Assembly: GCA_000004695.1 (NCBI GenBank)
Contig: CM000152.2
Location: 2,176,001-2,240,000, forward strand
Source of the DNA: Dictyostelium discoideum
Taxonomy: Eukaryota
Length of the DNA: 64,000 bases
Direction: 5' to 3'
This document shows positions 877 to 44,534 of this stretch, one piece after another; within the stretch, counting starts at the first letter, position 1; each line of letters starts with the position of its first letter. The notes beneath the pieces were generated by a model. That model did not search any database. It was not told the DNA's origin and saw only the letters and a list, made by a program, of their open reading frames with translations. A program made the position numbers and the translations under genes.

Positions 877-4098
<3,222 letters not shown>

Positions 4099-4188
4099 GT
4101 AAGAAGTTAATTTACCCCTCATTATCATAAATCATATAAATATATTTTTAAATTTTTCAAATATTAACCTTTTTTTTATTTATTTTAG

Positions 4189-6970: not shown

Positions 6971-8169
6971 GTAATAATAACACCGATATTAGCAATATTG
7001 ATATTAATACAGAAATAACAGAGATATCACCATCAACTCAATCATTACAAACTTCCTCATCGAGTATAAATAAACCAATTTTGGTTATTCCACCTCAAAC
7101 TACTCAGCAAGCACCAAAAAAAAGATGGTTTGGCGGTTTATTTAGTAAAAAACAAAAGAATCCAGAAAGTGATAACAGTACTAAATCCGATAATAATGAT
7201 AATAGTAATAATTATAATAATAGTATATTGAATACACCATCAACTCAATCAACACCATCTACATCGTCAACTCAATCAACACCACCATTAAATGATTTTA
7301 AATATCCAATGAATAATAGTAATGGTGGTATACCAATTTATAATCATAATCATATTGGTGGTAGTATTAATTATAGTAATAATAATAGTAATGGTAATAA
7401 TAATAATAGTAATAATCACATAGCATCATTATCAATATCATCATACTCACCAGGTGGTGTAGTATCACCCTTGGTCCAACAACCATCACCATCTTATCAT
7501 ACTAGTTTAGTTAAACCAAATGGTGTTTATAGAAAAGGATCATTACCAAACACTAATTTACTTCATAGATCATTGACCAATCAAAATGAAGTCAATGCAT
7601 TAGGTGGAATATCATCGTCATCTTCTTCATTTTCACCAAATAGAGCCTCACCATCTTCCATATTTATAAATAAATTAAGTTCTAGTGGAAATTTTAATAG
7701 TAGTAATAGTAATAATAATAATAGTAATAATATTTATCATCATAATTTATCAGAGACAGGATCATCATCACCAAAATTATTTATTAATAATCTTCATGTA
7801 AATAATAATAATAATAATTTAGGTTTATCATCCTCAAGTACACAAGTTATGTCTTTTTCATCAGAATCGGTATGGGCAATGATCTCATCGAATTGGGAGG
7901 AATGGTCAGAACCACATTTAAGACCAATTCTAACTAAACATGTCCATCAAGGTATTCCAGAGAAATATAGACCACAAATTTGGTATCACTTTTCAAATAT
8001 GATACCACAACCATCGATAATACCAACTTGCTCCGTACTTGCGTTATCTCACTCTTCAAATAAAATTAATACAAATGTTTCAACGTTAACACCATTATCA
8101 ACACCATTATCAACACCATTATCACAAACACCAACTTTTAAATCTTCGTCATCAACTTTATTCGAACCA

Positions 8170-13852: not shown

Positions 13853-14097
13853 AATTCCATTTATCAATATAATATAAAATTAATCTACCAAAGAATTTAT
13901 CTAAATTTTCATTTAATTTGAAACCACCTGGCCAACCCATTAACCATAATATTAAAGACTTTAACATATCGTTATTTAAGAAAAAGTTTAATTTACCAAT
14001 TAAATCAAGTACATGACCACTAAAAAAGTTTAATAATAATCCTGCACCTATACCTAATAATATATCATTAAATATTAACCATGCGCTATTATGAAAT
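13853..14097 (-). CDS. pigQ: PIG-Q/Gpi1 exon 3 (Gpi1 domain: ...LWLMGWPGGFKLNENLDKFFGRLILYYIDKWN)
   Basis: Intron 2 (14098..14311) is GTAAGT...(TAA)n...TTATTAG. The LWLMGxPxGxKLN motif is characteristic of the Gpi1 family (human LWLWMMGSPAGLKLNTPLD). GTAAGT donor at 13852. Confidence 0.75.
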
Positions 14098-41057: not shown

Positions 41058-41132
41058 AAATTCATCATTATTTTTTTAAATTATTTCTATTTACAAAAGG
41101 GGGGGGGGGGGGGAGAGGTAAGAATTTTATTA

Positions 41133-41270
41133 TTATGAATCGAGTGACACAGAAAGATCAACTATTTTTTTAATATTTTCTATTTTTGTATTAATTTGGT
41201 CAACTAAAACTGTTTTTTGTTTCTCTAAATCTGTTTCTTGTCTTTTTATCTTTTTATTTTCATTTAATAG
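41133..41270 (-). CDS. Same gene, exon 3 (coiled coil; stop TAA at 41133-5)
   Basis: Acceptor ...TATATATAG at 41271-2. Frame LLNENKKIKRQETDLEKQKTVLVDQINTKIENIKKIVDLSVSLDS. Confidence 0.45.
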   Translation of the reverse strand, partial: LLNENKKIKRQETDLEKQKTVLVDQINTKIENIKKIVDLSVSLDS

Positions 41271-41364
41271 CTATATATAGTTATAATTATTATTATTGTT
41301 ATTATTATTTTGGTTAATGTTAGTAACAAAAAATAATAAAAAGTAAAAATTAATAAGTAATTAC

Positions 41365-41568
41365 ATTTTGATAGATTTTTAATAATCTTTCCCTTTCAGT
41401 CATCTTTAAATCTATGATTTGTGACATTATTTGTTCTTCAGGATTAATTATACTTGATGGAGGTGCTCTTTTATCGTTGAGAATGGTTGGTTGTTCACGA
41501 AGTAATCTTTCTAATTCACTTAATCTAATTGAAATTTGTCTTTCTTGACATATTAATTGAAAATCACT
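41365..41568 (-). CDS. Same gene, exon 2
   Basis: Intron 1 contains (TA)n with acceptor ...TTTGTATAG at 41569-70. Frame SDFQLICQERQISIRLSELERLLREQPTILNDKRAPPSSIINPEEQIMSQIIDLKMTERERLLKIYQN. GTAATT donor at 41364. Confidence 0.5.
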
Positions 41569-41617
41569 CTATACAAATATATATGTATATATTAAAATTA
41601 AATAAAGTATTGTTAGT

Positions 41618-41661
<44 letters not shown>

Positions 41662-41698
41662 ATAAAAATAAAAATTATAATGATGTAAAATATATTAC

Positions 41699-42002
41699 CT
41701 TTATTCTTTCTGATAAAGTTTGAAATACATTTGTATAAAGATAAGATAAAAATGATTTTGTATTTAAGTTATTATTATTTAAAGATGAGTAACAATCATA
41801 GAATTTCTGAAACGGTAATTCTGATAATGATTTATCTATTACTAAATCGTGAAACATTCTTAATTTTATCATTCTAATTCCTTCTATCTCTCCTGAAATA
41901 CATTTTAAAATGTCACTCTCACCAATTTCCAAATTTAATATACCTTTATCATAATCTACATTTAGTGTTGTGGTTTTTTCTATTGTATTATTACTTGTTT
42001 TG

Positions 42003-42042
<40 letters not shown>

Positions 42043-42055
42043 TATTATTATTCAT
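41699..42055 (-). CDS. Hypothetical coiled-coil protein, exon 1 (poly-N N-terminus)
   Basis: ORF MNNNN...EIGESDILKCISGEIEGIRMIKLRMFHDLVIDKSLSELPFQKFYDCYSSL...SERIK. GTAATA donor at 41698 (phase 0). Confidence 0.55.
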
Positions 42056-42120
42056 TGTTTTTTCTATTTCTTGTTTGTTTTTTTTTTTAGTTTTTGTTTT
42101 TTTTTTTTTTTTTTTTTAAT

Positions 42121-42206
42121 ACTTAGGCGCCTAAATTTTTTTTTTTTTTTTTTTTTGAATGAAACCTAATTATTTTTTTTATTTTTTAACATTTAGGCGC
42201 CTAAAA
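42121..42206. promoter_or_regulatory. Two copies of the GC palindrome TTAGGCGCCTAAA, 70 bp apart, in the AT-rich region 5' of the coiled-coil gene (ATG at 42055, minus strand)
   Basis: 42122-42135 cttaggcgcctaaa and 42192-42205 tttaggcgcctaaa; each is a perfect 12-14 bp palindrome. Both lie ~65-150 bp upstream of the minus-strand start codon and are flanked by T tracts. Confidence 0.4.
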
Positions 42207-42848
42207 TTTTTTTCCCAAGTATAATGAATCACCAGAAGAAAGACTAGCATAAATAAAACCAAGGAGAATGAACCGATGAAATGGCCCAATAAGTAACAAA
42301 GGACAGAAGACAAGAGAAAGAACCACACCAAAGTCAAAGAATTATATTATTCTAACAATAGAAATAAACTAATTAGAGGTAGAAAGAGAAGATAATTTTT
42401 CATTATTTATTTAAAATTTTTATTATTATTGGTTTGTTGTATTAAAATTAAAAATGTAAAATACCTAAATTTTTTTTTTTTTTTTTTTTTTTTCTCCCAA
42501 CCTCAATAATAAACTATTTATACAGATAGTGTATTAAAAAAAAACAAAAAATTATTATTATTATTAATAAAAAACAAAAAATTAATAAAAAATTAATACT
42601 AATAAAACTATTATTTATTTTATTTTTTATTTATTTATCTATTTTTTTTTATTTAATTATTTATAATAAAAATCTATTTATAATAAAACTATTATTTATT
42701 TGATTTTTTATTTATTTATTTATTTATTTTTATTTAATATATATTTATTTTTTGTTTTTTTTTTTTTCATTTACCTTGATTTTTAAAATCTTAGAAATTA
42801 ACTTGTTTGGATTAATTAATCAGAAGTTAAATGATTTTATTATTTTTT

Positions 42849-44534
42849 TTATATAATAAAGTCTGGATATTTTTCAAATAAAATTTTGTTATAAATTTGG
42901 CTATCGATTAGTGAGTTTAAAATTCTATTATCTTTTTTAGAATAACTTTGTAGTTTATCAATTGTAGTATCATATAATGTTGGTTTATCTTTAGGTTTTG
43001 TTGGAATTCTATCTATCAGTAATTGAACCATTTCAAAATTTTCATTCTTTATTGCAAAATTGATTGGATCTCTTGAAATTTGGATTTCAGGTAAATTTTC
43101 AAGAAAATATTTTAAAATATGTGTATAATTTTTTTGACAAACTTCATCAATGCATCTATATGTTAATTTTACTCTTTCACCATCTGAGCTATTAAATTTA
43201 TCAATAATGAATTTAGCAAATTCTAAATCTCCATCAAATGCAATATTAAAACAAAGATCATTAAATATATAATTTTCAAAATTTTCATAACAATATTTAA
43301 CAATTTCGAAACTTGTATTTGAAAAGTTAATACCAATAGGATTTAATCTTGATTTAAATGCTGATTCAACTAAATATTTAAATAATTGGAAATCTCTATT
43401 AGTAGATGCATATGATAAAAGTGAATTTGGGATAAACTTTAATGTTGGTTTAAACTTTTGTTTCACGTCTTCTAAATATTTCAAAGTTTCTAAATCATAA
43501 ACTTGATCAATCCCATAACTTAATTCTTTTGATTCTCCATTAAAACCAAGACAATTTTCTAAAAAGTTTTTAAAATGGTGAACTGATAAATTTGTTAAGA
43601 ATTTATAATTTGTAAAAATGGGATGAGTACATGATAAAGTCCTATTTGAAACTAACATTTGATAAACTTCAAGTGATTTATGGAAAACTCTATTATATGC
43701 AAAAACTAATTTATCCTGTCCTTTACTTGACTGATTTGGAAATTTATTAATAAATATTCTAGCCATTTCAATTGAACCAAGTACAACCATACGAACAATT
43801 AATTGATTTCTCGTTGTCCCAATATCACCATATTTACACTTGAATGGTAAATCATTACCATTCTCATCAACAATTGAATCCATTGATAAATCCATAATAG
43901 TTTGAAAACAAGACACTTTATTTAAATCTAAACAATCCATTATTGGTTGAAATTTTAATGATAATGGATTAGATTTTTGTTTTTCTTTCTCTTGTTTTGA
44001 AATTATTCTACAATTATTATTATAATTAAAACTATGATTTTTAAAACAATCAATTACATAAAGTATTGTATTAATATTATCTTGTTTAGATTGACACATT
44101 TTACCAATATATAATTGAAAATGATTAATATCAAATTTATAATTTTTAAATTTAATTAAAAATTCAATTATTTCAATACCAATTTTATTATTAAGTATAG
44201 ATAATTTTAAAATTTTATTTTTCTTTTTTTTTAATAAATTTTCATGATCATTATAAATTAAAATAAACTCTTGAATTGTAATTATATTTGATAAAATGAA
44301 ACTTTCTAAAATATAAATATCATTAAATTGAAATTTAAAATTAATTGCATTTTCATTATTTTTATTGAATAAATAACTTTGATAATATAAATTAAATAAA
44401 AATCTATTCTCTAAAATTCTAGTTAAATCTATATCTTTTAATTGTCTACCATTCCCTTTCCCATTTTTAACATAATTATAAATTATTGTAAATAAATATT
44501 TATTTTTAAAAACTTTAAAATATAAATTATCCAT
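42849..44534 (-). CDS. Hypothetical protein (561 aa; no recognisable domain)
   Basis: Uninterrupted ORF with normal Dictyostelium codon usage: MDNLYFKVFKNKYLFTIIYNYVKNGKGNGRQLKD... Confidence 0.6.
   Translation of the reverse strand: MDNLYFKVFKNKYLFTIIYNYVKNGKGNGRQLKDIDLTRILENRFLFNLYYQSYLFNKNNENAINFKFQFNDIYILESFILSNIITIQEFILIYNDHENLLKKKKNKILKLSILNNKIGIEIIEFLIKFKNYKFDINHFQLYIGKMCQSKQDNINTILYVIDCFKNHSFNYNNNCRIISKQEKEKQKSNPLSLKFQPIMDCLDLNKVSCFQTIMDLSMDSIVDENGNDLPFKCKYGDIGTTRNQLIVRMVVLGSIEMARIFINKFPNQSSKGQDKLVFAYNRVFHKSLEVYQMLVSNRTLSCTHPIFTNYKFLTNLSVHHFKNFLENCLGFNGESKELSYGIDQVYDLETLKYLEDVKQKFKPTLKFIPNSLLSYASTNRDFQLFKYLVESAFKSRLNPIGINFSNTSFEIVKYCYENFENYIFNDLCFNIAFDGDLEFAKFIIDKFNSSDGERVKLTYRCIDEVCQKNYTHILKYFLENLPEIQISRDPINFAIKNENFEMVQLLIDRIPTKPKDKPTLYDTTIDKLQSYSKKDNRILNSLIDSQIYNKILFEKYPDFII

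Follow-up and report, generated by a model that had tools for sequence, protein, structure and literature searches.

Two GC-rich palindromes stand upstream of a gene in a part of the Dictyostelium discoideum genome where intergenic DNA is almost devoid of G and C. What are such elements doing there? The original prediction took them to be paired binding sites of a dimeric transcription factor. We analysed the 64-kb stretch of DNA that contains them (hereafter the window, 21.7% GC), together with orthologous loci from other dictyostelids and published expression data. We conclude, with a probability of roughly 0.8, that the palindromes are duplicated E2F/DP sites that mediate repression of the mitotic Nnf1 gene by the retinoblastoma orthologue RblA.

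Results

Two rare palindromes in an AT-rich promoter

The 12-mer TTAGGCGCCTAA is present in the window in two mismatch-free copies, at 42123-42134 and 42193-42204, and a search permitting up to two mismatches found no third copy anywhere in the 64 kb. The proximal copy is a perfect dyad of 12 bp with its GGCGCC core at 42126-42131. The distal copy extends to a perfect dyad of 14 bp, TTTAGGCGCCTAAA, at 42192-42205, with its core at 42196-42201. Each is a candidate E2F/DP site. The two exact copies described earlier were thus found at both places, and the length given for them, 13-14 bp, needs adjusting to 12 bp for the proximal and 14 bp for the distal palindrome; a 13-mer, TTAGGCGCCTAAA, is the direct repeat common to both. 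The palindromes start 68 bp (proximal) and 138 bp (distal) 5' of the ATG at 42055 and lie 70 bp apart from start to start, in close agreement with the expected ~65, ~135 and 70 bp. T runs border both copies and the local GC content is 11-16%, again as described for this AT-rich promoter. The palindromes may fall within the 5' UTR of the Nnf1 gene.

Cores of this kind are extremely scarce. GGCGCC occurs at only two sites in the window, both in the Nnf1 promoter, against 0.11 expected per 64 kb from dinucleotide-preserving shuffles, of which 1 in 100 gave two; the second palindrome is probably a local duplicate, so the two copies do not count as independent chance events. With that reservation, the view that a GC-rich dyad is unlikely to arise here by chance is borne out. 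The tetramer GCGC is found five times in the window, both palindromes included, and none of the other three occurrences sits in a recognisable promoter: the one at 19787 lies in coding sequence, where an ATG-initiated reading frame spans the site, the one at 53485 is inside a called gene and apparently intronic, and the one at 14083 is beside or within the Gpi1 gene.

Extending the search to the E2F-type pattern TTWSGCGS (TT[TA][GC]GCG[GC]) on both strands of ~171 kb of dictyostelid DNA returned the Nnf1 promoters and one further match, at window position 7129 inside the coding sequence of a RabGAP. Between 46.6 kb and 69 kb, counted from the start of the window, there was no other intergenic match to GCGC, GGCGG or CCGCC, and the 21 kb around cdk1 gave a single stray intergenic match to these motifs. 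Intergenic DNA is ~88% AT and E2F-type GC cores are therefore almost unique. A dispersed repeat, one of the counter-explanations named in the original prediction, and a transposon terminus found no support in the DNA covered. No copy was found elsewhere in the window (two mismatches allowed) or in another ~107 kb, nearby sequence contains no transposon ORFs, and the 64 kb gave no sign of a repeat family.

The downstream gene encodes an Nnf1-family protein

The palindromes lie in a 793-bp intergenic region (42056..42848, minus strand) that runs from the stop codon of an ankyrin gene to the Nnf1 ATG and holds the Nnf1 promoter. The ankyrin gene, DDB_G0279533, is upstream of Nnf1 at 42849-44534 on the minus strand, as defined by ORFs and Pfam, and the order of the two genes is the same in every orthologous locus of the D. 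discoideum group. The downstream gene, DDB_G0279531, occupies 41133..42055 on the minus strand, exactly as proposed. Its three exons, read from the sequence (42055-41699, 41568-41365 and 41270-41133), yield 232 aa, the same length as the AX4 database protein.

The product matches the Pfam family Nnf1 (PF03980) with E=6.5e-13 and a score of 49.4 bits (cut-off 23.7), and its 90%-identity protein cluster includes the 232-aa AX4 protein (XP_641683 / Q54WN4 / DDB_G0279531). Despite this clear domain the gene is annotated as 'hypothetical' in GenBank, and its entry in the RblA study reads 'no significant homology' (PMC3386910). The match assigns a function to DDB_G0279531, that of an Nnf1/PMF1-family kinetochore subunit of the MIS12 complex.

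Other features of the gene and its surroundings are recorded here in their own right. The protein carries an N-terminal poly-Asn tract of strain-variable length, giving products of 218-232 aa, and intron 1 contains a (TA)n microsatellite at ~41620-41657. In the 3' UTR (41082-41113), a pure run of 15 C on the sense strand (G15 on the plus strand, 41099-41113) lies 20 nt past the stop codon and is directly followed by TTTTGTAAATAGAAA; other strains have an interrupted C/T-rich tract in its place. Also in the 3' UTR, TGTAAATA (41088-41095) is kept in 9/9 genomes, including D. purpureum, and fits the Pumilio/PUF response element, UGUAAAUA. This match suggests that Nnf1 mRNA may be under post-transcriptional control. 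A tRNA scan found no tRNA in the 64-kb window, and Rfam returned zero matches, both for the whole window at the gathering threshold and for 41900-42900 at E<=1.

An E2F-type motif at an RblA-repressed gene

The classical E2F consensus is TTTSSCGC. Each half of the palindrome, TTAGGCGC, agrees with it at 7/8 positions, and the core agrees with SGCGCS at 6/6. The mismatch adjoins the core, where D. discoideum has A, not T (TTA-GGCGCC-TAA). As a whole, TTAGGCGCCTAA agrees at 10/12 positions with TTTGGCGCCAAA, the palindrome reported for human E2F1 in SELEX and JASPAR (PMC5449588, PMC11580471).

The regulatory pathway that would use such a site is present. D. discoideum has one activator E2F (DDB_G0284129), one DP (DDB_G0276799) and one retinoblastoma orthologue, RblA (rblA, DDB_G0290551), and RNA-seq of an rblA disruptant showed almost every S-phase and mitotic gene to be under RblA repression, among them the kinetochore genes ndc80, nuf2, spc25 and SPC105 (PMC3386910). 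The dependence of DDB_G0279531 itself on RblA is established in the same study: in Table S2 its expression rises 12.09-fold during growth and 11.2-fold during development when rblA is disrupted (p = 0.0026 and 0.019), the 12-fold increase being one of the larger values for growth in the part of the table consulted, and the reads, low in number, are 19 for wild type against 209 for the null (PMC3386910). The same entry gives its cold-synchrony profile as 'cold-repressed?', not 'max late G2'. The derepression could be indirect. Our literature search turned up no Dictyostelium E2F motif, GGCGCC or rnrB promoter elements that were usable beyond the RblA RNA-seq paper, and the literature searched contained no promoter motif analysis of the RblA regulon.

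A GCG-core element precedes the Nnf1 gene in nine dictyostelid genomes

To compare promoters, we placed AX4 beside eight orthologous Nnf1 loci found by homology search. On the sense strand and relative to the ATG, AX4 has TTTTAGGCGCCTAAAT at -146 and ATTTAGGCGCCTAAGT at -76. The D. discoideum strains FIW and FIR retain both GGCGCC cores; their proximal site is the same as that of AX4 and their distal site reads TTTTAGGCGCCTGAAT, with one flank change (TGA). D. cf. discoideum FIY also has the AX4 proximal site, and its distal site is cut to the half-site TTAACCGCCTAAAT (reverse complement TTTAGGCGG). The proximal site and its flanks, ATTTAGGCGCCTAAGTATTAAAAA, are thus invariant in all four genomes of the D. 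discoideum clade (AX4, FIW, FIR and FIY), across which the spacing of the palindromes differs (70, 66 and 65 bp).

The distal palindrome is missing from D. citrinum, D. dimigraforme, D. firmibasis and D. purpureum. The two D. citrinum strains, FIV and FIU, have a single TTTTGGCGCA at -59 that contains the canonical TTTGGCGC, an 8/8 match to TTTSSCGC. In D. dimigraforme the element is ATTGGCGG at -82. At -91, D. firmibasis carries TTTTTGGCGGG, with the element TTTGGCGGG, and its TTTGGCGG matches the consensus at 7/8 positions. D. purpureum, in turn, has TTTTGCGC at -108. In these four species it is the only element of E2F type in the promoter, and it lies, like the proximal palindrome, in a zone 50-110 bp before the ATG.

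Looking across the whole comparison, a GCG-core E2F-type element lies 50-150 bp before the Nnf1 ATG in 9/9 genomes, and the promoters are otherwise unalignable outside the D. discoideum clade. In the promoters of the D. discoideum-citrinum group and of D. purpureum, the ~170 bp nearest the ATG contain no GC-rich element besides these sites, except for a solitary GCG in D. citrinum FIU; the D. firmibasis promoter has additional isolated CGC triplets upstream. The part that is conserved is TT(T/A)GGCG(C/G), an E2F-site sequence whose T-rich end comes first (5') when the sense strand is read. Given that the element is one-sided in the sister species, it is this half, and not the dyad, that represents the conserved feature. 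A perfect palindrome and a second copy occur only in the D. discoideum clade, and the spacing of the copies varies, so that the paired geometry is no conserved requirement. The original proposal of paired sites for a dimeric factor is supported with these qualifications: the E2F/DP-like motif, the RblA-repressed Nnf1 gene and the conserved element all point to such a factor and suggest which one it is.

Local repeats and the adjacent block

About 27 nt around each palindrome are alike, and the distal palindrome probably arose by a local duplication specific to the D. discoideum clade. Related repeats occur in the same region. A perfect direct repeat of 27 nt, CCTAAAT(21), is found at 42130-42156 and 42464-42490. 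The second of these belongs to a third, degenerate unit, AATAC-CTAAAT(n), at 42457..42490, which equals the proximal unit AATAC[TTAGGCGC]CTAAAT(n) less exactly the 8 bp with the GC core. The remnant of a fourth unit, CCTAAT, is at 42166-42171. Both of these units are core-less and neither is proposed as a site. Judged from the repeats themselves, this pattern indicates that the Nnf1 promoter region is likely to have grown through local duplications.

Directly upstream of the distal palindrome is a block (42206-42400) that is 33% GC and purine-rich on the plus strand. The four genomes of the D. discoideum clade all have it in conserved form, D. citrinum and D. firmibasis lack it, and it may be a clade-specific insertion. 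The CCTAAAT(n) repeats at 42130 and 42464 bracket both the distal palindrome and this block. The block has no Rfam match (E<=1) and no ATG-initiated ORF. BLAST located no second copy of it in the window or in 16 other loci; its matches were dominated by T runs, and those outside T runs are the informative ones.

A second RblA target, cdk1, and other candidates

The gene cdk1 is also repressed by RblA, by a factor of 2.7 during growth and 10.8 during development. Its loci were reached through a homology search in which the top dictyostelid cluster was that of CDK1_DICDI P34112 and its orthologues. In the 1.2 kb scanned upstream of cdk1 a GC element is present at ~-420, one of at most three. In D. 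purpureum the sole GC element in 1.2 kb is AGTGCGCCAAAC at -420, which contains GCGCCAAA, the reverse complement of the canonical TTTGGCGC. The aligned position holds GGCGG or GCGCGG in 4/6 genomes of the D. discoideum group; it is gone from D. firmibasis and one D. citrinum strain. The comparison of RblA targets comprises two genes (n=2), Nnf1 with the motif and cdk1 with an E2F-type element lost in two genomes; the cdk1 pattern is mixed and on balance favours the E2F reading, at a sample too small to speak for a regulon.

The cdk1 promoters have further conserved sequence. In the stretch from ~-390 to -330, TTTCCCTCCA, ~30 bp downstream of the E2F-like GGCGG, is invariant, as is TTTTCAAACTCATTCCAAACA further downstream, and both are kept in 6/6 D. 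discoideum-group promoters. TTTCCCTCC, also in the cdk1 promoter, differs by one base from the E2F variant TTTCCCGCC.

Two more RblA-repressed genes were sought near the window. The nuf2 gene (DDB_G0279553) is not within the 69 kb made up of the window and 5 kb beyond its end, and an exact protein look-up of the window's multi-exon ORFs gave no match to DDB_G0279501. An ORF of 1077 aa at 877-4110, which has no Pfam family, may be DDB_G0279501, a guess from counting gene order. The region upstream of this ORF (511-876) contains no clear E2F-type motif, only AAAACGGGTTTT and GTGTCGAATTTAAA.

Discussion

From the form of the sites, their position before a mitotic gene and the response of that gene to loss of RblA, we infer that E2F/DP is the protein that binds the palindromes and that the sites carry the effect of RblA. 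A heterodimer of E2F and DP would sit on the symmetric GGCGCC core and its AT-rich arms and, once bound at the dyads, would recruit RblA, so that Nnf1 would be repressed outside late G2/M. Inactivation of RblA in late G2 or mid-development, or its deletion, would then switch Nnf1 on with other S-phase and mitotic genes. Ancestrally the promoter may have carried just one TTTGGCG(C/G) site, ~60-110 bp from the ATG, which the D. discoideum clade would have turned into a full palindrome and duplicated locally.

Could a factor other than E2F be responsible? A different homodimeric protein might recognise GGCGCC or TAGGCGCCTA, with the dependence on RblA being indirect or running through another element. 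The A that replaces the consensus T next to the core in both halves is in keeping with this idea, as are perfect dyads of 12 and 14 bp, which exceed what E2F needs, and the literature search supplied no Dictyostelium E2F motif for comparison. We nevertheless consider such a factor unlikely. The sister species have a canonical E2F site of the one-sided form in its place (TTTGGCGC in both D. citrinum strains, TTTGGCGGG in D. firmibasis), the Nnf1 gene is 12-fold repressed by RblA (PMC3386910), and a GGCGCC palindrome with AT arms is the E2F1 SELEX motif (PMC5449588, PMC11580471).

The repeats around the palindromes invite two other readings, both of which we judge far less credible than duplicated E2F/DP sites. 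The palindromes might have no function and simply result from duplication or slippage within low-complexity intergenic DNA, in which one GC-rich oligomer that arose by chance was copied locally. This would account for four related 'CCTAA + T-run' units of which two lack the core, for a distal copy that is clade-specific and decaying in FIY, and for a spacing that ranges from 65 to 70 bp. Duplication, however, explains the second copy and not the first; and an element with a GCG core in nine genomes from D. discoideum to D. purpureum, amid flanks that do not align, together with a proximal site and flanks that are invariant in four D. discoideum-clade genomes and the near absence of such elements from ~171 kb of other sequence, makes an accident of copying very improbable. 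More improbable still is that the palindromes belong to a mobile element or to a gene for a non-coding RNA, as termini or promoter of the 42206-42400 block. The distal palindrome does adjoin this GC-richer block of ~200 bp, found in the D. discoideum clade only; a shorter related sequence, CCTAAAATTTTTTT, adjoins the block at 42200-42213; and the bracketing CCTAAAT(n) repeats (42130, 42464) can be read as a target-site duplication. Yet the block has no Rfam match (E<=1), no tRNA, no ATG-initiated ORF and no second copy in the window or the 16 other loci, and species without it still have the E2F-type site.

If the palindromes are indeed E2F/DP sites, a more speculative possibility concerns their symmetry. 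The Dictyostelium E2F/DP or RblA complex might prefer a lineage-specific dyad, TTAGGCGCCTAA, with the ancestral TTTGGCGC converted and duplicated so that RblA could hold down a dosage-sensitive kinetochore subunit unusually tightly. We regard this as doubtful, and it would have a practical consequence if true: the complete E2F regulon could be read directly from promoters that are nearly free of GC.

On the preferred reading of duplicated E2F/DP sites, the locus provides a concrete candidate cis-element for the RblA/E2F pathway in Dictyostelium, whose regulon has so far been defined by RNA-seq. A genome-wide search for TT(T/A)GGCG(C/G) should tell direct RblA targets from indirect ones at a very low noise level. 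Otherwise this is an ordinary transcription-factor site, which would not surprise a specialist.

Comparison with known systems

Two known promoter systems were compared with the locus and set aside. The Dictyostelium ncRNA upstream element (DUSE) has the form [AT]CCCA[CT]AA and lies ~60 nt upstream of a small-RNA gene. TCCCAAGT (42213-42220) and TCCCAACC (~42494) resemble it but do not fit, having A after CCCA, and Rfam gave no match in 41900-42900 at E<=1. In the CDE/CHR arrangement of G2/M genes regulated by DREAM/MuvB, a GC-rich CDE is followed after 4 nt by a CHR, TTYGAA. The Nnf1 locus is similar in having a mitotic (kinetochore) target and TTTGAA/TTCAAA between the palindromes, a hexamer expected by chance in AT-rich DNA. 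This TTTGAA (~42154-42159) is separated from the proximal core by ~20 nt and from the distal core by 37 nt, and the 4-nt spacing is missing. A Dictyostelium homologue of lin54 is itself RblA-repressed.

A close likeness is to the palindromic E2F sites of animals, TTTGGCGCCAAA and TTTCGCGCCAAA. They share with the Nnf1 elements a symmetric GGCGCC core between T-rich and A-rich arms, a place in the proximal promoter of a cell-cycle gene, often in two copies, and a target repressed by the Rb family. The second of these, TTTCGCGCCAAA, is the overlapping inverted E2F site of DHFR type. The Dictyostelium candidates differ from the animal sites in reading TTA-GGCGCC-TAA, with A/T in place of T/A beside the core, and in lying in ~88% AT DNA, which makes the core by itself almost unique. 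The classical one-sided E2F site of animals and plants, which is under Rb-E2F-DP control there, is matched by TTTGGCGC in D. citrinum and TTTGGCGG in D. firmibasis, in an organism that has E2F, DP and RblA; the D. discoideum site departs from that form in being a full dyad, and a duplicated one.
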